DNA of 64,000 nt from an uncultured Actinomycetota bacterium (GCA_963718235.1 CAVQYR010000002.1:544001-608000), one strand, 5' to 3'; shown: positions 4,200 to 13,237, numbered from the stretch's first letter. Notes: generated by a model from the sequence alone, not told the origin. Translations and numbers: made by a program.

Positions 4200-4286
4200 G
4201 CCCCTGGCGTGACGAGGACGAGTGCCCCACGGGCGCTGCAGGCACGGGGGGGCGATGGCGCGTCCCTCGCGCCGCTACCCTTCGGC

Positions 4287-4949
4287 GTGATGACTGACGA
4301 CACTCACGACACCCACGACGCTGACGGCGCTGCGGGCGACCCGGCCGACGAGAGCATCGAGCAGCGCACGGCTCGCTTCGAGCGCGACGCGCTGCCCTAC
4401 CTCGACCAGCTCTACGGAGCGGCCCTGCGGATGACGCGCAACCCGGCCGATGCCGAGGACCTCGTCCAGGAGACCTTCGCCAAGGCGTTCTCGGCCTTCC
4501 ACCAGTACCGCGACGGCACCAACCTCAAGGCCTGGCTCTACCGCATCCTGACGAACACGTTCATCAACACCTACCGCAAGAAGCAGCGGGAGCCCCAGCA
4601 GTCGATGGCCGAGGAGGTCGAGGACTGGCAGCTCGCCCGGGCCGCCGAGCACACGTCGGCAGGACTGCGCTCGGCGGAGGCGGAGGCCCTCGACCGGCTG
4701 CCGGACAGCGACATCAAGGATGCGCTGAACGAGCTCAGCGACGACTTCCGGCTCGCGGTCTACCTCGCCGACGTCGAGGGCTTCGCGTACAAGGAGATCG
4801 CCGACATCATGGGGACACCGATCGGCACGGTCATGTCCCGGCTGCATCGGGGGCGCAAGCAGCTGCGCACCCTTCTGGAGGACTACGCGATCGAGCGAGG
4901 GCTCATCCCCGCGACCACCGGCGGGGACCAGGAGGAGGAGGGGTCATGA
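4287..4949 (+). CDS. sigH: ECF sigma factor SigH/SigR (thiol-oxidative stress); an in-frame upstream GTG at 4209 may give a longer isoform
   Basis: [46 protein letters not shown] and [23 protein letters not shown]; followed by a ZAS anti-sigma gene. Confidence 0.95.
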
Positions 4950-5227
4950 GCTGCGGGAACCCGCACGCGGTCGACTGCTCGAAGGTGCTCGAGACCGTCT
5001 ACCTCTACCTCGACGGCGAGATCGACCACTCCGAGCTCGGGGTCATCCGAGAGCACCTCGACGAGTGTTCGCCGTGTCTTCGCGAGTACGGAATCGAACG
5101 CGAGGTCAAGCAGCTGGTGGCCCGTAGCTGCTGCGAGACGGCGCCGGAGTCGCTGCGGCACGCGGTGATCGCGCGGATCCGGGTGGTGCGCACCGAGATG
5201 ACCCAGGTGGAGTTCCGCGCCGACTGA
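4946..5227 (+). CDS. rshA: Zinc-binding anti-sigma factor RshA/RsrA
   Basis: HxxxCxxC motif (HLDECSPC); ATGA overlap with sigH. Confidence 0.93.
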
Positions 5228-5231
5228 TCGT

Positions 5232-5260
5232 CGTTCGCACCGGACCAGGCCCGGCGAACG
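5232..5260. terminator. Hairpin between convergent rshA and bL37 genes
   Basis: Imperfect stem cgttcgc-accgg ... ccgg-cgaacg. Confidence 0.45.
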
Positions 5261-5265
5261 TCGGG

Positions 5266-5340
5266 TCAGGCGGCCGGCCGGTTACCGTGGTTGGCCTTCT
5301 TCTTCTTGCGGTCCTTGCGCTTGCGCGAGCTCTTGCTCAT
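5266..5340 (-). CDS. 50S ribosomal protein bL37 (24 aa, MSKSSRKRKDRKKKKANHGNRPAA); not in the ORF track
   Basis: Manual translation. Basic peptide with ANHGxRP closely resembles mycobacterial bL37; GGAG RBS upstream; sits next to rshA. Confidence 0.9.
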   Translation of the reverse strand: MSKSSRKRKDRKKKKANHGNRPAA

Positions 5341-5364
5341 GGTGTCTCCAGGCTGGGTCGAGTC

Positions 5365-5390
5365 GGGTTCCGCTGGTGGGTTCCGCTGGT
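5365..5390. repeat. 13-bp tandem duplication (GGGTTCCGCTGGT x2) upstream of bL37
   Basis: Exact direct repeat at 5365-5377 and 5378-5390. Confidence 0.8.
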
Positions 5391-5443
5391 GGCGGCGCGG
5401 CTCAGGTGAGCCCCGAGTTTCTCACAGGGCCCCACACCCTCGG

Positions 5444-6202
5444 TCAGCCGGCGATCCGGCGGTTGAGGGCATCGAGCACCGAGCGGGCTACCGCGTCGGC
5501 CTCGTCGCCTCGGATGACCGCGCTGCCACTGGTCGACTGTGGGCCGATCCGCGGCACGTTCACGACGAGCACGGTCAGGGCCACGCTGTGGATCCCGGCC
5601 TCGATCACCGTGACCGACTCGACCTCGGTCGGCAGCCCCAGCAGCGGCTCGAGGGCCGACAGGGTCGCCTGGGCCACGAGTCGATGACGGTAGGAGGCGG
5701 CTCCGGACCCTGACGCCGCGCCGTCGAAGGTCTCGTCGCCGAAGGCCAGTCGAACCACGGCCTCGGCCTCTGCGCCGGACGTGCGGACCGTCAGCGACGT
5801 GATTGCCGGCCGCACGGTCTCCTCCGAGTCAGCCTCGACGACGTCGTCGCGGACCGGCACCGGACCGGCCTCCTGAGACTCAGCCGCGAGGACGCTCGGT
5901 GCTGTCGGGGTCTGCGAGGTCGGCGCCTCGGCCGGGGGCCGGGTCGCCCCGTTGGGCGGGGTGGCGTCCTCCTCGCCGATCTGGACCACGCTCACGATCC
6001 GGTGGTCCAGATCGATGTCGTAGCGGGTCAGCGCCACCGACTGGACGTCGCGGACGAGCTGCTTGGCGGGCTTGCCCGGGGACGCCAGCACGTGGACCTC
6101 GGTCGGGACCGCTTTGGGGTCGGTGACCACACTGACCGCGCGGATCCCGGGGATCTGGCGCAGCGCGTCCTCCAGGGCGGGCAGCAGACGCAACGTGGGC
6201 AT
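5444..6202 (-). CDS. Conserved hypothetical two-domain protein next to the HD-GYP genes
   Basis: N-domain with EVHVLA..KQLVRDVQS..DLDHRIVSVVQ, a Pro/Ala linker, and an alpha/beta C-domain ending ARSVLDALNRR; coding-like GC3. Confidence 0.8.
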   Translation of the reverse strand: MPTLRLLPALEDALRQIPGIRAVSVVTDPKAVPTEVHVLASPGKPAKQLVRDVQSVALTRYDIDLDHRIVSVVQIGEEDATPPNGATRPPAEAPTSQTPTAPSVLAAESQEAGPVPVRDDVVEADSEETVRPAITSLTVRTSGAEAEAVVRLAFGDETFDGAASGSGAASYRHRLVAQATLSALEPLLGLPTEVESVTVIEAGIHSVALTVLVVNVPRIGPQSTSGSAVIRGDEADAVARSVLDALNRRIAG

Positions 6203-6256
6203 GAAGGTCAGTCTCTCTCGGGTATGGGTCACGGGGTTGCGCATCGGTCAGACAGG

Positions 6257-6673
6257 TCAGGGGTCGCTGGGCAGGACGGTGAGCCCGGCGACCAGGAGCC
6301 GACGGGGGGTGGGGTCGTAGGGAGCTTCGTCTCCAGCGTCACCCTCGTCGTAGGACGGCCCCTCGTCGAGGACGTCCTCGGTGGGTTCCTGGTCGAGGAT
6401 GTCCTCGTCACGAGCCTCGGCGCGGGCCTGTTCGAGGCCGAGCATCGCGGCCGGAACGGCCGTACGGGCGTGCTCGACGAGCCCTCGCACCGACTCCCGC
6501 TGGAGCCAGCGCAGCCGCCGGGCGGTGTCGGGGTCGAGGTGACCGCTGGCCACCGCCGCCGCCACCTCCTCGTCGAAGCGCTGGGTGGCGACGTCGTCAC
6601 GGACGTCCAGGAGACCGGCGACGAGGTCGCCGTAGGCGGCCGTCCTGGCCGAGCTGCGAGCCGTGTCGATCAC
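6257..6673 (-). CDS. Hypothetical protein with acidic C-terminal tail
   Basis: GTG at 6673 preceded by a GGAGG RBS; coding-like codon usage; same strand as the 5444 gene. Confidence 0.65.
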   Translation of the reverse strand: MIDTARSSARTAAYGDLVAGLLDVRDDVATQRFDEEVAAAVASGHLDPDTARRLRWLQRESVRGLVEHARTAVPAAMLGLEQARAEARDEDILDQEPTEDVLDEGPSYDEGDAGDEAPYDPTPRRLLVAGLTVLPSDP

Positions 6674-6810
6674 CGGATGTGCCTCCCCCCAACCGTCGCC
6701 CGCCCGCGCAGCGGGCACGCCGCGTGAGGACGAGGCTAGGGCAGCGAGATCGCCGCTGAGCCAGGGCCGGGTACAAGCCTGCGCCATTCGGGTTGGGGCT
6801 AGTGCTTGAT

Positions 6811-6839
6811 GACTATTTCTTATAGTCCAGAAGGACTAT
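6811..6839. promoter_or_regulatory. AT-rich overlapping palindromes (GACTAT / ATAGTC / GACTAT), candidate operator
   Basis: gactat(6811-16)-ttctt-atagtc(6822-27) and atagtcc(6822-28)-agaa-ggactat(6833-39) in a divergent intergenic region. Confidence 0.5.
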
Positions 6840-6944
6840 GTGCGCACGACGGTTCGGGATCGACCTGCCCGGTGTCTTGACGGCACCACCCGTCACACCC
6901 TTCACTTCCGTTCGGTGGCATGTCTGATTTATCCCAGGCAGCCC

Positions 6945-6976
6945 CGGCACAGCACGACGGCACAGCACGACGGCAC
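6945..6976 (+). repeat. 13-bp tandem repeat CGGCACAGCACGA x2.5
   Basis: Copies at 6945-6957 and 6958-6970, partial copy at 6971-6976. Confidence 0.85.
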
Positions 6977-6987
6977 TCACCACAACT

Positions 6988-7238
6988 GCACAGGGCGAAG
7001 CCAGGATCGGCAGCATTGGGGGTTCGACCCCGTCGTCCTCGTGACGACGGGCACGAGCTTTGTTTCATCCAGCGGAGCGAATCGCGCGCGAGCCAACCAG
7101 CGGGGCTCGTGACACTCCAACGGAGGTGATTCCCACCGATGAGCAAGATCGTGGCAGCTGTCGAGCGTGCCCTCGCCGCAGGCGCAGGGTGGGCCTGGAA
7201 CTGACCCCACAGCTGCCGATCCTGGTTTCGCCCTTTGC
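6988..7238 (+). ncRNA. Candidate structured leader RNA; a long-range stem encloses the small peptide ORF
   Basis: 6992-7014 pairs with 7212-7234 (22 Watson-Crick pairs plus one G.U on the + strand). Inner stems are 7029-7037/7043-7051 and 7052-7058/7105-7111. Confidence 0.6.
7139..7204 (+). CDS. Small 21-aa peptide MSKIVAAVERALAAGAGWAWN (candidate signalling or leader peptide); not in the ORF track
   Basis: GGAGGTGA Shine-Dalgarno at 7122-7129, ATG at 7139, TGA at 7202-7204; immediately upstream of the HD-GYP operon. Confidence 0.75.
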   Translation: MSKIVAAVERALAAGAGWAWN

Positions 7239-7260
7239 GCCTTCCCCAGGAGTGGAGCCG

Positions 7261-8715
7261 ATGCAGGCACTGCGCCCCGCGGCGCGCGGCTACATCGCGG
7301 TGGTCATCACCATGGCCGCCGTGGCTGTCGTCGTGTCGATGGCGGCCGCCCTCGGAGTCATCGACGTCGAGATTCTGCGCATCTCCGAGGTTGACGATTT
7401 TTGGCAAACGATCATCGTGCTCGCCCCCGTGTACGTCCTCGCCACCTCCACACCGTCGGCCATGGCGGTCCCGGTGGCCATGATGGCGAACGTCCCGGTG
7501 CTCTTCGCGGCCTACCTGATCGCCGGTCCGGCCGCCGCCGTCCTCGTCGCCGCGTCCGGGCTCCTCGCGTTCACCTCGGTCCCGTGGGTCAAGCGAGGTT
7601 TCAACACCGCCCAGTTCACCCTGATCGGCCTGGGCGCCGGCCTGGTCTACGTGATGCTCGACGGCCCCTTCGCCGAGGACTTCGCGGCGGCCAACTTCGG
7701 ACGGGACATCCTGGTTCCGGTCGTCGCCTCCAACGTCGCAGCGATGGTGCTGAACGGGCTCCTGCTCTTCGGCGTGCTCCGTACCGCCGAGGGACTGTCC
7801 TTCCGGTCCATGTGGCGCACCGTCATCGCCGGCTCGGCCGTGCCCTACCTCGGGTACGGGCTGTTCGGACTCCTCATGGCGGTGCTGTGGTCCGTCGGCA
7901 GCGGGTTCGGTGCGACTCTGGTGCTGCTTCCGCTGCTCATCGCCCGCTGGGCGTACCGGCAGTACGCCGAGCAGCAGCGGGCGTACGAGGCGACCATCGC
8001 CGCGATGGTGCAGGCGGTCGAGACCAAGGACCACTACACCCGTGGACACAGCGAGCGCGTGTCGCGAGCCGCAGTGATGATCGCCCGCGTCCGGGGCATG
8101 ACGGCGGACCGGGTGAACGCCCTGCGCTACGCCGGGATCCTGCACGACGTCGGCAAGCTGGGTGTGCCCACACGTTTGCTGCAGAAGACCGGCCCCCTGG
8201 CCGACGGTGAGTACGAGCGGATCAAGATGCACCCGGTGCACGGCACCGAGATGGTTCGTGGGATCACCTTCCTGGAAGAGGCGTACGAGGGGATCCTGCA
8301 CCACCACGAGCGCCTCGACGGTCTCGGCTACCCCAGCGGTCTGAAGGGCATGGACATCCCCGAGTTCGCCCGCGCCATCGCCGTCGCCGACGCCTTCGAC
8401 TCGATGACGTCGACCCGTTCGTACCGAGGGGCTCGCAGCGTCGAGAAGGCGCTGGAGGAGCTGGACCGCTGGAAGGGTACCCAGTTCGACCCGGCCATGG
8501 TCGACGCGCTCGTGACGGCATTGGAGCGCGAACCGTGGAAGACCACCGCGGTCGTCGTCGACACCGCTGACGGCGAGACGCCGGTCGCCGCGAGCTTCGA
8601 CCACGACGACCCGGGCGCCCCGATCCCACTTGGCAGCGACCAGGCCCTGGCTGCGGCCGCCGAGGAAGCCGAGAGCGCCCAGGTGTCGGCCCTGCGACGT
8701 CAGGACGACGCATGA
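7261..8715 (+). CDS. Membrane-bound HD-GYP c-di-GMP phosphodiesterase with multi-TM sensor (MASE9-like, inferred)
   Basis: About 7-8 TM segments with a KRGFN motif, then ETKDHYTRGHSERV, ILHDVGK, HHHERLDGLGYP and VADAFDSMTSTRSYR. RBS AGGAG/GGAG before ATG 7261. Position matches the Streptomyces HdgA/HdgB pair after sigR-rsrA (recalled). Confidence 0.93.
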   Translation: MQALRPAARGYIAVVITMAAVAVVVSMAAALGVIDVEILRISEVDDFWQTIIVLAPVYVLATSTPSAMAVPVAMMANVPVLFAAYLIAGPAAAVLVAASGLLAFTSVPWVKRGFNTAQFTLIGLGAGLVYVMLDGPFAEDFAAANFGRDILVPVVASNVAAMVLNGLLLFGVLRTAEGLSFRSMWRTVIAGSAVPYLGYGLFGLLMAVLWSVGSGFGATLVLLPLLIARWAYRQYAEQQRAYEATIAAMVQAVETKDHYTRGHSERVSRAAVMIARVRGMTADRVNALRYAGILHDVGKLGVPTRLLQKTGPLADGEYERIKMHPVHGTEMVRGITFLEEAYEGILHHHERLDGLGYPSGLKGMDIPEFARAIAVADAFDSMTSTRSYRGARSVEKALEELDRWKGTQFDPAMVDALVTALEREPWKTTAVVVDTADGETPVAASFDHDDPGAPIPLGSDQALAAAAEEAESAQVSALRRQDDA

Positions 8716-9995
8716 GGTCGCGCTGGTTCGACTCCTCGGCGGGCGCGACGCTCGTGGTGATCGGCGCGCTCCTGCTCGTGGCCGGTGCGGTGATGTCGAC
8801 GAGCGTCCAGGGTCTCGTCCAACCGATGATCGCCCTGGCCTTCGGCGGCTTCGTGGCGGTCGGTGAGCTGATCCGGATCAACCTGCCGGGAGACCGGGTG
8901 ACCGCTCCGCTGGGCGCGGCGGGTGCTCTGGGCTACGCCCTCCTGGAGAGCTTCGACGGGGTCCCGACGCAGTACGACGCCATGCAGGTGATCGCCGTGG
9001 TTGCGGTGGGCATGCTCGTCGGCACCGTGCCGCACGTGGCGGTGGGCCAGCCTCCCCGGCTCGAGGCGATGGCCCGCCGGATCCTCACGACGGCCTTCGC
9101 CGCGGCCATCTTCCGGCCGCTGTACACCTCCGGTGCCCTCGACGGGCTCGAGACGCCGGACTGGCAGCTGCCGGCGTTCATGCTCGTCGTCGTCGCGTGC
9201 AGCGGTTTCGTCGACGCCCTGCTCGCGGCACTGATCCGCAGCAGCCGCGAGCGGCTTCCGTTCCTCGCCGCACTTCGGGACGAGGGGCGCGCCTTCGTGG
9301 GGATCGGCTCGGTCATCGGTGCCACCGGCGTCCTGATCGCGCTGGCCGCCGAGGTCATGGGCTACTGGGCGCTGCCCATCTTCGCGATCCCGCTGCTCAT
9401 CGCCCAGTTCTCCTTCCGCCGGTACGCAGCGATCCGAGCCACCTACACCCAGACGATCCGGGCACTGTCCCGCGTCACCGAGGTGGGTGGGTACACCGAG
9501 ACCGGGCATGCCCGCCGGGTCAGCCAGCTCGCCCTGGCGGTGGGGCGCGAGATGGGGCTGTCGGAGTCTGCCCTGATCGACCTGGAGTACAGCGCCCTCA
9601 TGCACGACATCGGCCAGCTGTCGTTGTCCGACCCGATCCCCGGCGGAGCGACGGTCATGGTCGCGCCGGACGAGCAGCGCCGGATCGCCGGCCTGGGTGC
9701 CGAGGTCATCCGCAAGACGGGGGTCCTGGACCGGGTCGCGGTGATCGTCGAGTGCCAGAGCGAGCCCTACCGCCGCCCAGGACAGCCCCTGGACGCCGGG
9801 ATCCCGCTGGCGAGTCGGATCATCCGGGCGGTCAACGCCTACGACGACCGGGTCGGCGGGTTGAACGACCTCGAGCACCAGCTTGCCGCGCTCGAGCAGC
9901 TGCGGCTGGGCATGGCCTACGACTACGACCCACGGGTCGTGGAGACCCTGAGCCGGGTCGTGGAGCGCAACTCCCGGCTCGGCGTCCAGCCCTAG
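8712..9995 (+). CDS. Second membrane-bound HD-GYP-like protein, catalytically degenerate
   Basis: Multi-TM N-terminus. TGHARRV and LMHDIGQ are retained, but HHE..DGxGYP is replaced by CQSEPYRRPG. ATGA coupling to the first HD-GYP gene. Confidence 0.88.
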   Translation: MRSRWFDSSAGATLVVIGALLLVAGAVMSTSVQGLVQPMIALAFGGFVAVGELIRINLPGDRVTAPLGAAGALGYALLESFDGVPTQYDAMQVIAVVAVGMLVGTVPHVAVGQPPRLEAMARRILTTAFAAAIFRPLYTSGALDGLETPDWQLPAFMLVVVACSGFVDALLAALIRSSRERLPFLAALRDEGRAFVGIGSVIGATGVLIALAAEVMGYWALPIFAIPLLIAQFSFRRYAAIRATYTQTIRALSRVTEVGGYTETGHARRVSQLALAVGREMGLSESALIDLEYSALMHDIGQLSLSDPIPGGATVMVAPDEQRRIAGLGAEVIRKTGVLDRVAVIVECQSEPYRRPGQPLDAGIPLASRIIRAVNAYDDRVGGLNDLEHQLAALEQLRLGMAYDYDPRVVETLSRVVERNSRLGVQP

Positions 9996-10070
9996 CCGGC
10001 CGGAGGCGACCGCGTCGCGTGCTTGGATGGCGCTGCGTGTGCTGCACGCGACGAGGCGAAGGGAGCCACG

Positions 10071-10304
10071 GTGGCTGAGCAGGTCCGCGCGGAGATGGTC
10101 GCGAACGTCCTGAAGGTCCTGGTGGGTGCCGGCGACCCGGTGGCCGCCGGAGACGCCGTGGTGATCCTGGAGTCGATGAAGATGGAGATCCCGGTCCTGG
10201 TCGAGCACGCGGGAACCGTGGTGGCGATCGACGTCCAGGAGGGCGACGTGGTCCAGGAGGGCGACGTCATGGTCGAGGTCGCCGACGCGGTCGCGGCCGG
10301 CTGA
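10071..10304 (+). CDS. Stand-alone biotin/lipoyl carrier protein (TB7.3/Rv3221c-like)
   Basis: VRAEMVANV start and LESMKMEIPV biotinylation motif; GGAG RBS. Confidence 0.92.
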   Translation: MAEQVRAEMVANVLKVLVGAGDPVAAGDAVVILESMKMEIPVLVEHAGTVVAIDVQEGDVVQEGDVMVEVADAVAAG

Positions 10305-10360
10305 GCCCGGCTGACCCCGGCCGAATCTGACCGCGGACCGCAGCGCGGCAGTCATTCGGG

Positions 10361-10388
10361 TAAAGGTCGACGCCGCAGGCACCGACAC
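10361..10388 (+). promoter_or_regulatory. Sigma28 (FliA/WhiG)-like promoter of pilT
   Basis: TAAAG(10361-65)-N15-ACCGACAC(10381-88) versus consensus TAAAG-N15-GCCGATAA; GTG start at 10396. Confidence 0.55.
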
Positions 10389-10395
10389 ATTCCCC

Positions 10396-11569
10396 GTGGA
10401 GAGCTCCAGTGAGACCCTCGACGCCATCCGTGCGCCTCTGATCGAGGCCGCCCTGGACCCGGCGACCGGCAGCGACCTGAGCTCGAGCGCGCCGGTCTCC
10501 GTCGAGCCGTTCCTGCGCGCTCTGGTCGACCTCGGCGGCTCCGACCTGCACTGCAAGACCGGCTCGCCGCCCCGGGTCCGGATCGACGGGCGGCTGCGCA
10601 AGCTCCAGGCCCGTACCCTCACCGCCGTCGACACCGAGTTCATGGCCTCTGAGGTCCTGCGCGACGACCTGATCGAGCAGTTCGCCCACAGCAACGAGGC
10701 CGACTTCGCCTACTCGCTGCCGGGCGTGGGCCGGTTCCGGGTCAACGCCTTCCGGGCCCGTGGGTCGGCCGGACTCGTCTTTCGTCGGGTGTCGGTCGGC
10801 GCGATCGAGCTGGAGGACCTGGGGCTGCCCCAGGTCGTCGGTGCCCTGTCGCTGGAGCCGCGCGGACTGGTGCTGGTCACCGGCCCGACCGGTTCGGGCA
10901 AGACGACGACCCTCGCGGGCATGATCGACAACATCAACCAGAACCGCGAGGTCCACATCGTCACGATCGAGGACCCGATCGAGGTCCTGCACTACGACAA
11001 GCTCTCGATGATCAACCAGCGCGAGATCCGGATCGACACCCAGGACTTCGCCACCGCGCTGCGGGCCGGCATGCGCCAGGACCCCGACGTCATCCTGGTC
11101 GGTGAGATGCGCGACTCCGAGACGGTCAAGGCCGCCCTGGCTGCCGCAGAGACCGGCCACTTCGTCATGTCGACCCTGCACACCACTGACGCGGCTGAGA
11201 CGGTCAACCGAGTCATCGACTTCTTCCCACCCCACGAGCAGAAGCAGATCCGGCTCACCTTGGCCGAGTCCCTGCGCGGCATCCTGTGTCAGCGCCTCGT
11301 CCAGCGAGCCGACGGCTACGGGCGGTGCGTGGCGATGGAGGTGCTCGTCAACACCGGCCGGATCGCCGACGCGATCTCCGACCCGGACAAGACGTCGACG
11401 ATCACCCAGCTCGTGAGCGAGGGCTCGCTACTACGGCATGCAGACGTTCGACCAGCACCTGGTCTCGCTGATCCGCGACGGCGTCATCACGCTGGAGTCG
11501 GCGATGCTCGCCTCGTCGAGCCCGCACGACCTGACCGTCGAGCTGCGTCGTCTGGGCCTGGTCGCCTAA
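10396..11569 (+). CDS. pilT: Type IV pilus retraction ATPase PilT/PilU family; +1 frameshift near 11428
   Basis: SDLH, GRFRVN, GPTGSGKTTT, TIEDPIE, RQDPDVILVGEMRD and STLHT. The conserved YGMQTFDQHL C-terminus continues in the +1 frame to TAA at 11567-11569. Confidence 0.9.
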
Positions 11570-11601
11570 TCTTGAGGTCGCGCCGCTCGTAGGGTGGCGC
11601 C

Positions 11602-11985
11602 ATGGGTATCGACGTCGGTCTGACCGCCGGGCTCGTCCACACCGTGGGTGTCGAGGACACCGCACGCTACGTCGGCAGCGGTGACCTTGACGTACTCGCC
11701 ACGCCTCGCCTGCTGGCCCTGGCCGAGGCGGCGACAGTGGCCGCCCTCGACGAGGCGCTGCCGGCCGGTCAGACCTCGGTCGGGACCCGGGTCGAGCTGG
11801 AGCACCTCAGGCCCACGCCGGTGGGCGAGACGGTCACCGTGGCAGCCGCGCTGCAGCACGTCGACGGCCGGCTCCTGCGTTTCGAGGTGGTCGTCACCGA
11901 CGACGCCGACCAGCTGGTGGGTCGGGCGCAGGTCACCAGAGTCGTCGTCGACCGCAGCGACTTCCTGGACCGGGCACGGCGCTGA
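11602..11985 (+). CDS. Hotdog-fold thioesterase (FlK-like)
   Basis: GSGDLDVLATP, AEAA and TSVGTRVELEHLRPTPVG. Confidence 0.9.
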   Translation: MGIDVGLTAGLVHTVGVEDTARYVGSGDLDVLATPRLLALAEAATVAALDEALPAGQTSVGTRVELEHLRPTPVGETVTVAAALQHVDGRLLRFEVVVTDDADQLVGRAQVTRVVVDRSDFLDRARR

Positions 11986-12018
11986 GCCGCCCGACGGCTG
12001 CCCAGGTGAGCGGATCGG

Positions 12019-12189
12019 TCAGCGGATCGGCAGCCGGCTCCACGCCAGGGCCTCGTCGCGCCAGTCGCGCGGTGAGCCGGGGGGCCGGGTCGACCGGTCG
12101 CGTCGGGTGGTGCGGACCGTGGCCACCAGCGTGGCCAGGACGAGGAGGACGGCCACGAGCAGCCAGAACGAGGTCAGCGAGAGGGTCAT
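12019..12189 (-). CDS. Small 56-aa single-TM protein divergent from the GlxA regulator; not in the ORF track
   Basis: Manual translation MTLSLTSFWLLVAVLLVLATLVATVRTTRRDRSTRPPGSPRDWRDEALAWSRLPIR. Confidence 0.6.
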   Translation of the reverse strand: MTLSLTSFWLLVAVLLVLATLVATVRTTRRDRSTRPPGSPRDWRDEALAWSRLPIR

Positions 12190-12250
12190 GGCAGTAACTG
12201 TGTCATCGCTGACTTGCTGCCACCAGTGGCAGTTTTGCCCGCTTTCGCAT

Positions 12251-12282
12251 TATTCCTGCCATTTCCTGCCTTTTCCTGCCAT
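12251..12282. promoter_or_regulatory. Three 10-bp-phased TTCCTGCC repeats, candidate AraC-type operator
   Basis: tattcctgcc atttcctgcc ttttcctgcc between divergent genes. Confidence 0.5.
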
Positions 12283-12292
12283 ACTGCGTCCC

Positions 12293-13237
12293 GTGCTGCA
12301 TGACGTGGTCGTCGTGGCCCTCCCGGGCGTGGCCCCCTTCGAGCTGGGCGTCGTGTGCGAGGTCTTCGGGATCGACCGGTCCGACCAGGGGCTCCCGGAC
12401 TTCGACTTCGCCGTGGTTGCCGCCGAACCCGGCCCCGTGACGACCTCGGTCGGTCTCGACCTCGTGGTCACCGAAGGACTCGACCGGGCGGAGTCGGCCG
12501 ACCTGATCTGCGTCCCGGCCGCCGACCACGAGCGGCCGGTCCCCCCTGCGGTGCTGAACCTGCTTCGGCGTGCGGTCGAGCGGGGAGCCCGGGTGCTGAG
12601 CGTGTGCAGCGGGGCCTACGTGCTGGCCGAGGCGGGGATCCTGGACGGTCGCCGCTGCACGACGCACTGGTACCACCTGAGCGACTTCGTCCGGCGGTAT
12701 CCACAGCTGGACACCGTGTGCGACGTGCTCTACGTCGAGGACGGCCCGGTGGTGACCAGCGCGGGCACGGCCTCGGGGATCGACGCCTGCCTGCACATCG
12801 TCCGCCAGGAGCTCGGCGCCGAGGCGGCCAACGGCATCGCCCGGCGGATGGTCGTGTCGCCTCACCGCGAAGGTGGGCAGGCCCAGTTCATCGAGACGCC
12901 GGTTCCGGAGGTCGCTGCCGACACCCTCGCGCCGGTCCTGGCCTGGTTGCAGGCGCATCTGGACGACGACGTCACGATCGACGAGCTGGCCGCCCGAGCC
13001 CACCTGTCACCGCGCACGTTCGCCCGCCGCTTCCGGGCCGAGACCGGCACCACGCCGCACCACTGGCTGATCCAGCAGCGGCTGGGGCGGGCCGAGCTGC
13101 TGCTGGAGTCGACCGACGAGCCCGTCGAGCGGGTGGCCGTGCTGTCCGGGTTCGGCTCGGCGACGGCCCTGCGGCACCACTTCACCCGCCGTCGCGGGAC
13201 CTCACCGCAGTCCTACCGGCGTTCGTTCAGACGCTAG
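12293..13237 (+). CDS. GlxA/FtrA-family transcriptional regulator (DJ-1/PfpI plus AraC HTH)
   Basis: PFELGVVCEVFG, SVCSGAYVLA, TSAGTASGIDACL, REGGQAQF and SPRTFARRF. Confidence 0.92.
   Translation: MLHDVVVVALPGVAPFELGVVCEVFGIDRSDQGLPDFDFAVVAAEPGPVTTSVGLDLVVTEGLDRAESADLICVPAADHERPVPPAVLNLLRRAVERGARVLSVCSGAYVLAEAGILDGRRCTTHWYHLSDFVRRYPQLDTVCDVLYVEDGPVVTSAGTASGIDACLHIVRQELGAEAANGIARRMVVSPHREGGQAQFIETPVPEVAADTLAPVLAWLQAHLDDDVTIDELAARAHLSPRTFARRFRAETGTTPHHWLIQQRLGRAELLLESTDEPVERVAVLSGFGSATALRHHFTRRRGTSPQSYRRSFRR

Follow-up and report, generated by a model that had tools for sequence, protein, structure and literature searches.

The window analysed here is a stretch of 64,000 nucleotides (nt) from an uncultured bacterium of the Actinomycetota (GCA_963718235.1, CAVQYR010000002.1:544001-608000), with a G+C content of about 70%; positions are counted from its first nucleotide. 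It carries a conserved Actinomycetota operon made of a structured leader RNA, a small open reading frame (ORF) and two overlapping genes, hdgA-like and hdgB-like, that encode membrane proteins with an intact and a degenerate HD-GYP domain, respectively. The map was drawn from an ORF listing, from reading of the sequence and from Pfam and NCBIfam scans. Relatives were searched by tblastn-type homology in 41 related genomes; the tallies include two unpublished genomes (G033 and G025), on which none of the specific claims depends. The features of the operon, all on the plus strand, are given below in their order of occurrence.

6988-7021 (core 6993-7014), plus: 5' arm of the long-range helix P0 (inverted repeat, covariation, minimum free energy (MFE) fold)
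7022-7070, plus: variable hairpin region V, with a hairpin at 7024-7056 (inverted repeat); 21-109 nt long in 83 unique examples
7071-7082, plus: near-invariant junction AGCGGAGCG(A/G)AT (alignments A1-A4)
7087-7093 with 7105-7111, plus: hairpin P3, whose loop has a conserved AGCG
7115-7118 and 7122-7130, plus: CTCC resembling an anti-Shine-Dalgarno (anti-SD) segment, and extended Shine-Dalgarno (SD) sequence GGAGGTGAT (folding)
7139-7204, plus: small ORF of 21 codons, MSKIVAAVERALAAGAGWAWN (conserved, coding signature)
7205-7238 (core 7212-7233), plus: 3' arm of P0, starting directly after the stop codon
7261-8715, plus: hdgA-like gene, 484 amino acids (aa); Pfam HD_5, 129.1 bits (cut-off 27.2), 1.9e-37; SD AGGAG at 7248-7252
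8712-9995, plus: hdgB-like gene, 427 aa; Pfam HD_5, 35 bits, 1.5e-8; degenerate HD-GYP

The small ORF and the RNA that encloses it

The SD sequence GGAGGTGAT of the small ORF (7122-7130) is a 9-nt match, located 8 nt before the ATG, to what we take to be the complement of the 16S rRNA 3' end. The stop codon is separated from the ATG of the hdgA-like gene by 56 nt. The initial annotation of this region, made from the sequence of the window only, had pointed to an ORF of 21 aa at this distance from two HD-GYP genes and with a strong ribosome-binding site, and both the ORF (7139-7204) and its SD are indeed there. Close HdgA homologues with available upstream sequence are found at 28 loci, or 27 when L021, which belongs to the unpublished genome G033, is left out of the locus counts. 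A short ORF of the same family ends 19-76 nt before hdgA in 26 of these 27 loci (regular-expression search); at the 27th, L026, found in a genome of 8.1 Mb, a divergent hydrophobic ORF of 35 aa is located 68 nt upstream of hdgA. A motif scan including one genome per species gave at least 120 places. Among the matches listed, 75 of 120 are true instances, all of which have the peptide; the other 45 come from unrelated phyla, have neither the upstream block nor the peptide and are not considered as instances.

The alignment consensus is MKKIxxAVExFLxxGAGWxWx. The near-terminal Trp is invariant, and conservation runs along the whole peptide, not along its C-terminus alone. The search for a conserved small ORF upstream of such pairs, suggested in the initial annotation, gave a positive answer, with an in-frame ORF before the homologous gene in every usable locus examined, well beyond what chance would give. 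In the 83 unique examples, the start codon is ATG (77), TTG (5) or GTG (1); the stop codon is TGA (28), TAG (28) or TAA (27) and is found at a conserved place. Most of the variation affects third codon positions, and the fraction of codon differences that are synonymous is 0.35 when read in frame versus 0.18 and 0.13 in the two shifted frames. This conservation of frame, start, stop and SD, together with the synonymous excess, is as expected for a translated small protein; the comparison firmly shows a small ORF that looks translated and evolves as coding sequence, and supports a real peptide gene. Comparison of the sampled loci also shows that an ORF of 20-35 codons always precedes the HdgA homologue.

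The Pfam and NCBIfam scans of the peptide gave no match. Ten of the peptides were looked up in a set of about 15 billion predicted proteins: nine are missing from it, and the tenth is there as a longer open frame named only 'hypothetical protein'. The core of the peptide is charged (conserved Glu; Glu or Arg) and its hydropathy is near zero in 75 of the 83 examples, the one of the window included. Several lineages outside the clade of the window have hydrophobic variants of helix length, with a basic N-terminus and a small-residue AGA motif. A shortened peptide of 13 aa (MFKMLLEPGVSWR type) is found inside the same RNA at L025, L055, L084, L091 and L113, in very small genomes (1.4 Mb for G028).

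In the window, as in most lineages, the small ORF is enclosed in a structured RNA of about 250 nt, closed by the long-range helix P0, whose two arms flank the ORF. The arms (34 nt) are 88% complementary; their core includes 22 bp, one of which is G-U. The complement search was done on 81 loci, and a perfect complement of at least 8 nt between the P0 blocks is present in 73 of them. The 3' arm starts 4 to 59 nt after the stop codon, in most loci within about 5-30 nt. Covariation was analysed in a set of 57 sequences (RNAalifold, pair counts), whose RNAalifold consensus has P0 (20 pairs) and P3, at -52 kcal/mol. Pairing is possible in 97.2% of the P0 and P3 cells versus 37-45% when the partners are slid by 1-3 columns. 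Double changes affect 18 of the 30 pairs (216 cells), and none of 500 column shuffles was as high on any measure. For P3 considered separately, double changes affect 7 of 10 pairs and 95.8% of the cells pair; this hairpin is further backed by mutual information and base-pair probabilities in 81 sequences. RNAalifold also proposes a short pairing, GGCAGC/AGCGGAGCGG, which involves invariant bases only and so is not open to judgement by covariation.

At two positions of P0, the pair is a U-G wobble in 15 and 18 sequences, respectively. Since such wobbles would be A-C mismatches on the other strand, P0 is a helix of the plus-strand RNA and not a DNA palindrome. The upstream blocks are conserved in different reading frames, which indicates that they are not coding. 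The RNA of the window (6985-7265) has a predicted energy of -150.8 kcal/mol (z = -6.4), with P0 formed. Secondary structure that is both conserved and covarying, the mark of a structured RNA, is thus present, and the alignments firmly show a covarying RNA domain that encloses the small ORF. This structured RNA is the best-supported feature of the locus. No match was obtained in an Rfam scan of 5000-12500 with E up to 1, known c-di-GMP (cyclic diguanosine monophosphate) classes included.

The ribosome-binding site of the small ORF is predicted to be masked. In the MFE and centroid folds of the window RNA, CTCC (7115-7118) pairs with GGAG of the SD. Over 42 sequences, the mean predicted unpaired probability is 0.22 for the SD versus 0.33 for all bases. 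The segment predicted to pair with the SD differs between sequences and is either the spacer immediately downstream, the segment 3' of P3 that resembles an anti-SD, or a run rich in C and U that precedes the junction. Region V of the window also includes a terminator-like stem (7038-7057) followed by CTTTGTTTCA (to 7067); this element is not conserved in relatives, and RNA contigs (see below) read through it at 7038-7067.

Some additional features of the RNA were noted. AGCGG is found three times in 7066-7106 (two copies in the junction, one in the P3 loop), near-invariant in alignments A1-A4; these repeats could be a protein-binding site. A conserved C-rich run, CTTCCCC, is found directly 5' of the SD AGGAG of hdgA (7240-7252 in the window) in many loci; its pairing partner could be the SD of the small ORF, which is rich in G, or else the 5' arm of P0. 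Two candidates were rejected. The block 6980-7014, which includes TTGACA in many relatives, was considered as a promoter and dropped once it was recognized as the 5' arm of P0, which covaries and includes U-G wobbles. A helix drawn by eye between this block and the 3' end of the variable region is inconsistent across clades.

The HD-GYP pair and the distribution of the module

The hdgA-like protein has the HD dyad (ILHDVGK), HHERLDGLGYP (HHHERLDGLGYP) and RSYR, in columns that are invariant in 25 homologues. The motif set of HD-GYP domains has been described as an HD dyad, HHExxDGxGYP and the substrate motif RxY[K/R] (preprint 10.1101/2021.11.05.467447). The product of 7261-8715 thus has both the score and the motifs of an HD-GYP phosphodiesterase; the product of 8712-9995 has H..HD (MHDIGQ) but neither HHE nor GYP. 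The two genes overlap by ATGA in the window. Of the 22 loci at which a start of hdgB can be called, 21 have it 4-10 nt ahead of the stop codon of hdgA (4 nt in 16 of these), and an hdgA-like homologue is found in 34 of the 41 relatives. Hydropathy scans indicate seven hydrophobic segments at the N-terminus of the HdgA-like protein and six at that of the HdgB-like protein, versus eight in the description of the MASE9 domain. The two genes for HD-GYP proteins with several membrane segments, one intact and one degenerate, which the initial annotation called translationally coupled, are confirmed as an overlapping pair, with the scores (129 versus 35 bits) and the motifs expected of such a pair.

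The only MASE9 proteins reported as studied in the available text of the sources cited here are HdgA and HdgB of Streptomyces venezuelae (PMC6205966, PMC13232838, 10.1101/2021.11.05.467447). Their genes (Vnz_24090 and Vnz_24095) are in tandem and encode a MASE9-HD-GYP protein and a degenerate neighbour without GYP (PMC6205966). They are described as poorly expressed, and their deletion as without phenotype on standard medium (PMC6205966, PMC13232838). The N-terminal domain of HdgA was named MASE9; its description gives eight predicted membrane segments, among them a hairpin within the membrane, as well as positions at which Phe/Tyr or Asn/Ser are conserved, and periplasmic loops that are short and poorly conserved; an unidentified ligand was proposed to bind inside the membrane, and hydrolysis of c-di-GMP by HdgA is reported as a personal communication (10.1101/2021.11.05.467447). 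The statement of the initial annotation that no ligand is described for these sensors agrees with the text of this preprint.

The pair of the window is like the Streptomyces pair in its tandem of an intact then a GYP-less HD-GYP protein, both with multi-pass membrane domains (PMC6205966). This likeness is one of architecture. No MASE9 profile matched in the Pfam and NCBIfam scans of the two proteins, and the label 'MASE9-type' is applied to their membrane domains by analogy, from the architecture shared with HdgA. The S. venezuelae system differs in that an upstream small ORF or leader RNA is not mentioned in the available descriptions (PMC6205966, PMC13232838). More generally, no mention of such elements upstream of hdgA, hdgB or MASE9 genes was found in the openly accessible literature, from which subscription journals and preprint supplements, Figure S5 included, are missing.

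The distribution of the RNA was examined using a covariance model, R1, built without the 3' arm of P0. One copy was found in the genome of the window. An additional match on contig 1 of this genome (E 0.5) is followed by neither a small ORF of the family nor an HD-GYP gene and was treated as due to chance. Outside the family of the window, eight matches were found in seven genomes, all with a small ORF. Seven of these ORFs encode a hydrophobic helix of 24-29 aa with a basic N-terminus and an AGA-type motif; the one of L153 is of the charged VER type. At each of the eight loci, the ORF is followed by an HdgA homologue (E 1e-39 to 1e-119), and 9-18 contiguous pairs form a helix that resembles P0 but differs in sequence. 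Among the listed motif loci, 67 have a flank of at least 500 nt on the downstream side, and an HdgA homologue comes next in all 67; the flank of the other 33 loci is too short. Synteny thus firmly shows that the small ORF and the RNA are linked to the HD-GYP pair and to no other gene in every sampled locus, in several families. R1 gave no match in the two families with large genomes that were sampled. Genome G105, from a more distant family, has two whole modules (RNA, hydrophobic ORF of 27 aa, HdgA homologue) on different contigs, L154 and L160; they correspond either to a true duplication or to a mixed bin (contamination rated 4%).

Transcripts were searched in metatranscriptomes. Five runs share a few sequence words with the region, and four were aligned. 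Three freshwater runs gave one contig each, of 185, 177 and 187 nt, covering 7022-7205, 7030-7205 and 7018-7203, with one mismatch and one indel each. These contigs correspond to the stretch between the arms of P0 and end at the stop codon of the small ORF; this extent fits excision at P0 or a stable short RNA. What the contigs establish is that the region is present in RNA libraries. No meaning is attached to regions without contig cover. Run X1 and other small pieces (30-40 nt, 90-95% identity) correspond to HD-GYP genes of other organisms and are uninformative on the expression of hdgA.

Proposed role of the microprotein and alternatives

The reading that we favour, to which we give about an even chance, is that the small ORF encodes a microprotein acting with the membrane domains of HdgA and HdgB, that its synthesis is gated by the RNA fold and that P0 is a processing site. 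The microprotein would act on or with the MASE9-type sensor domains of HdgA and of its degenerate partner HdgB, as a subunit or regulator setting the c-di-GMP phosphodiesterase activity. The RNA fold would limit its translation by masking the ribosome-binding site, until a signal at the conserved junction (a metabolite, a protein or temperature) lifts the masking. P0 would be a double-stranded processing site of the RNase III type, whose cleavage would free a stable RNA including the leader and the ORF from the hdgAB message, so that the peptide and the poorly expressed enzymes could be made in different amounts. The peptide-protein contact, the ligand and the cleavage are inferred.

A role at the protein level is suggested by the conservation along the whole peptide, by a hydrophobic helix that is retained despite the divergence of the sequence, and by L026, where the ORF is kept without the RNA motif. 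The initial annotation considered the peptide as the ligand or the membrane partner of the sensor domains. A membrane partner is plausible, since lineages outside the clade of the window encode a hydrophobic helix of transmembrane length. The proposal that a ligand of MASE9 binds inside the membrane (10.1101/2021.11.05.467447) was counted in favour of the membrane partner. Low expression of HdgA and HdgB and the lack of a deletion phenotype fit a tight conditional control. A complex prediction including the membrane parts of HdgA and HdgB of L028 and a frame of 32 aa (the peptide preceded by seven upstream in-frame residues) gave a score that was not specific, according to a control in which HdgB was replaced, and is counted neither way.

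Several observations weigh against this reading. Seventy-five of the 83 peptides, the charged-core one of the window included, are not classical transmembrane helices. The conservation of the whole peptide could equally reflect a nascent-chain effect. Any coupling of translation to P0 differs between loci, since 4 to 59 nt separate the stop codon from the 3' arm. At L026, model R1 did not detect the RNA motif although the ORF is kept, which indicates that the RNA is not obligatory for the peptide, and under strict filters the model matched only 8 of the 151 genomes of an even sample of the phylum, the window's own included. The assembled contigs prove neither the ends nor the strand of the RNA and may derive from DNA carry-over; the three freshwater runs may belong to one campaign, and a transcription start just after the 5' arm of P0 would yield the same picture.

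Four other explanations were considered. The small ORF may be a cis-acting leader, whose translation, or a nascent-chain stall at the W-x-W stop, would be the active event, the peptide having no later job. Ribosomes that end beside the 3' arm would open P0, refold the region preceding hdgA and set the translation of hdgA and hdgB or the decay of their mRNA. We regard this as unlikely, though credible: the base after the stop codon is the first of P0 in the window, the 3' arm is found within about 5-30 nt of the stop in most loci, the SD of the small ORF is very strong but masked, that of hdgA lies about 15 nt after the 3' arm, and a length of 20-25 aa with an invariant C-terminal Trp is compatible with an exit-tunnel signal. 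Such a leader accounts poorly for a peptide conserved as a whole and not at its C-terminus alone, for hydrophobic variants that hold their physicochemical character despite sequence change, for the ORF of L026 without a detectable RNA motif, and for stop-to-arm distances of up to 59 nt in some loci, beyond the reach of a terminating ribosome. The RNA could also be a metabolite riboswitch, responding for example to c-di-GMP or to its breakdown product, in a feedback on the phosphodiesterase operon in which the ORF would be a passenger; this explanation, which overlaps the signal step of the favoured reading, seems distinctly unlikely to us. The absence of an Rfam match with E up to 1, known c-di-GMP classes included, argues against it, the three AGCGG repeats would equally suit a protein-binding site, and the single gene context gives no clue to a ligand. 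Near-invariant unpaired nucleotides (the AGCGGAGCGGAU junction and the AGCG loop) beside covarying helices, the alternative SD partners predicted and the association of the motif with one gene family only, in the sampled loci, would nevertheless suit a riboswitch, and small membrane proteins under the control of c-di-GMP riboswitches are reported in Clostridioides difficile (PMC13724677).

The initial annotation had proposed a control similar to quorum sensing. This is taken here as a peptide that would be exported, processed and then sensed, externally or inside the membrane, by the HdgA and HdgB membrane domains. Nothing was found for it, genes for export, processing or import not having been searched as such, and we hold it to be improbable. 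The hydrophobic variants resemble a minimal signal peptide (basic N-terminus, hydrophobic stretch, A-G-A, then 3-6 residues including Trp), and streptococci have short hydrophobic peptide pheromones with C-terminal Trp motifs, which provide a precedent. The sensor domain has no known ligand in the description available, a point in favour of such a peptide, but its periplasmic loops are given there as short and poorly conserved (10.1101/2021.11.05.467447). The features of a Sec-type signal peptide (unbroken hydrophobic core, small-x-small site) fit the minority of hydrophobic variants and are lacking in the peptide of the window, whose Glu/Arg core, shared by 75 of the 83 peptides, is unlike exported signal peptides. 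The 14 features annotated at 5444-11569 include no exporter, peptidase or importer, an observation that is a by-product of annotation and not of a dedicated search. Finally, the ORF could belong to a cassette similar to type I toxins, with a membrane-active peptide whose mRNA is silenced by a 5'-3' long-distance interaction and which would be next to hdgA by accident. The small, partly hydrophobic peptide, the enclosing long-range helix and the masked SD recall the hok and AapA1 mRNAs. Type I toxins come with an antisense or overlapping RNA antitoxin and are patchy and often multi-copy; the module is found in one copy per genome and in strict synteny with hdgA across families, and most of its variants are not hydrophobic, so that we see very little chance for this explanation.

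The microprotein proposed in the favoured reading can be compared with MgrB, KdpF and AcrZ, small membrane proteins that accompany sensors or transporters (PhoQ, KdpABC and AcrB, respectively). As in these systems, a very small protein, overlooked by gene callers, is encoded beside or controlled with a multi-pass partner, and some of the variants are hydrophobic single helices. The differences are that most of the peptides found here are amphipathic with a conserved Glu, and that the putative partner is a c-di-GMP phosphodiesterase. The mRNAs of the type I toxins hok and AapA1, in which a 5'-3' long-distance interaction is also found, have in common with the module a small ORF inside a long-range helix, a masked ribosome-binding site and processing as a plausible activation; the module differs by being in single copy, present in several families and fixed beside hdgA, with a transcription that probably runs on into hdgA and hdgB. 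Ribosomal RNAs are flanked by long-range processing stems cut by RNase III. Here also, a near-perfect duplex of about 20 bp or more surrounds a functional RNA and the RNA contigs cover the enclosed part only; the enclosed RNA differs in being a short mRNA leader with an ORF, and its cleavage is putative. The C. difficile system likewise has a structured leader before a very small membrane-associated protein in a c-di-GMP network (PMC13724677). It differs in its RNA, which is unrelated (no Rfam GEMM match here), its phylum and its unrelated peptides; in the module, the ORF heads a phosphodiesterase operon.

The kinds of components involved (leader RNA, microprotein, HD-GYP pair) are known; what is new is their arrangement, in several families of the phylum, with a long-range helix that cages an ORF ahead of the genes of a MASE9-type phosphodiesterase pair. 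HD-GYP phosphodiesterases with membrane sensors are widespread, and their input signals are mostly unknown. The locus gives a concrete lead on the control of these poorly understood c-di-GMP-degrading enzymes, with two handles: a microprotein that is a candidate partner for binding or activity, and an RNA whose ligand or processing may explain the silence of the genes in the laboratory. The peptide family, essentially unannotated, and the RNA, without Rfam family, are additions to the catalogues of genes and RNAs of Actinomycetota, abundant freshwater lineages included. A bolder version of the favoured reading, which we consider doubtful as a whole, would see the RNA of about 250 nt as an 'RNA cage', a new class of element for sensing and processing: the long-range helix would lock the microprotein gene until a signal or an RNase III cleavage occurs, and the microprotein would be the first known MASE9 input, would switch HdgA and HdgB in the membrane and might reach pilus function through the syntenic PilT-like ATPase across Actinomycetota.

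Flanking genes and intergenic elements

The genes and elements found on both sides of the operon are the following.

4209-4949: extracytoplasmic function (ECF) sigma factor (family scan)
4946-5227: zinc-finger anti-sigma factor (family scan)
5444-6244, minus: hypothetical protein of 266 aa, conserved; unmatched in Pfam and NCBIfam
6257-6787, minus: hypothetical protein of 176 aa, conserved, encoded by the first gene of the divergent pair; unmatched in Pfam and NCBIfam
between 6787 and the small ORF at 7139: intergenic region, 351 nt
6822-6839: perfect 7+7 palindrome ATAGTCC-N4-GGACTAT, operator-like (sequence)
6877-6906, plus: promoter-like block TTGACG-N18-TTCACT, candidate promoter of the primary transcript
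10071-10304, plus: biotin/lipoyl-binding carrier, 77 aa; NF004547, 5e-30, 103.5 bits (cut-off 75)
10396-11569, plus: PilT-family ATPase paralogue; TIGR01420, 8e-124, 413 bits (cut-off 319); frame break near 11425-11432

The long-range helix P0, the conserved RNA around the small ORF and the biotin/lipoyl carrier gene are additions to the initial annotation. Its two divergent, uncharacterized genes (6257-6787 and 5444-6244, minus strand) are present as announced. In an AlphaFold2 model (mean predicted local distance difference test score 74), the protein of 266 aa starts with a small alpha/beta domain, which a disordered linker connects to a C-terminal domain of two beta-beta-beta-alpha units. 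This C-terminal domain resembles the regulatory domain of LeuA and citramalate synthase (Foldseek E 1.3e-4, root-mean-square deviation 3.3, 125 columns), which is of an amino-acid-binding type (leucine/isoleucine). Matches to the protein of 266 aa were obtained by tblastn in 67 fetched loci, and it is found in 29 of the 41 relatives; weaker paralogues of its C-terminal half are found elsewhere in the same genomes (for example at 433534-434025 of contig 2 of G000). The family of the protein of 176 aa, as read from open frames, has a helical core (...LRWLQR...) and, at the C-terminus, a conserved motif of the RRLLVAGL type, with an acidic linker in between that is variable; tblastn matches were obtained in 56 fetched loci, and the divergent pair is syntenic. 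The ESM Atlas gave unnamed clusters only for the former protein and no usable match for the latter.

The operator-like palindrome of the initial annotation does exist at 6822-6839 but is confined to the family of the window: sites of the TAGYCC-N4-GGRCTA type are found in 10 of 73 loci (regular-expression search), all among its nearer relatives. The hexamers TTGACG and TTCACT recur with a variable spacer sequence in 57 of 73 loci, according to a permissive regular expression used without a chance control. The block at 6877-6906 could be a promoter placing the 5' arm of P0 in the transcript. It is not called by a sigma-70 scan, because its second hexamer has no A at position 2. Between this block and the 5' arm of P0, 6945-6970 is a perfect tandem direct repeat of 13 nt (two copies of CGGCACAGCACGA); each copy is 90% complementary to 7030-7039 in the variable hairpin region.

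The carrier gene is located between the hdgB-like gene and pilT, and it is found downstream of hdgB in 16 loci whose flank reaches that far. Together with the upstream ECF sigma and anti-sigma pair, it presumably recalls the mycobacterial sigH-rshA-TB7.3 neighbourhood. The pilT described as just downstream of the HD-GYP pair does belong to the PilT family and is syntenic, but the carrier gene intervenes and the frame is lost near 11425-11432. The TIGR01420 match ends at profile position 309 of 343. The remainder is in another frame, the +1 frame encoding the expected YYGMQTFDQ... C-terminus to a TAA at 11567-11569, and the main frame continues to 11592 as a sequence unrelated to PilT; this break is either a real frameshift or an assembly error. 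In 14 relatives, which represent four families, hdgA is followed at 1-4 kb by this PilT paralogue (75-91% identical), in the same orientation. The syntenic paralogue stands apart from the main pilus ATPase cluster, found on contig 1, and the genome has four other secretion-type ATPases elsewhere. A link between pilT and the HD-GYP pair is suggested by synteny only.

The sigma28-like promoter that the initial annotation placed before pilT corresponds to TAAA (10361-10364) followed by 16 nt and ACCGACAC, which has 5 of 8 positions of GCCGATAA; the promoter consensus of sigma-28 factors (FliA/WhiG) is taken here as TAAA, about 15 nt and GCCGATAA. The genome has one sigma factor gene of the FliA/WhiG family (283 bits). 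The WhiG-RsiG switch, mentioned in the initial annotation, may be related to the locus by analogy only. The neighbourhood that extends from the two divergent genes to pilT behaves as a single conserved unit.

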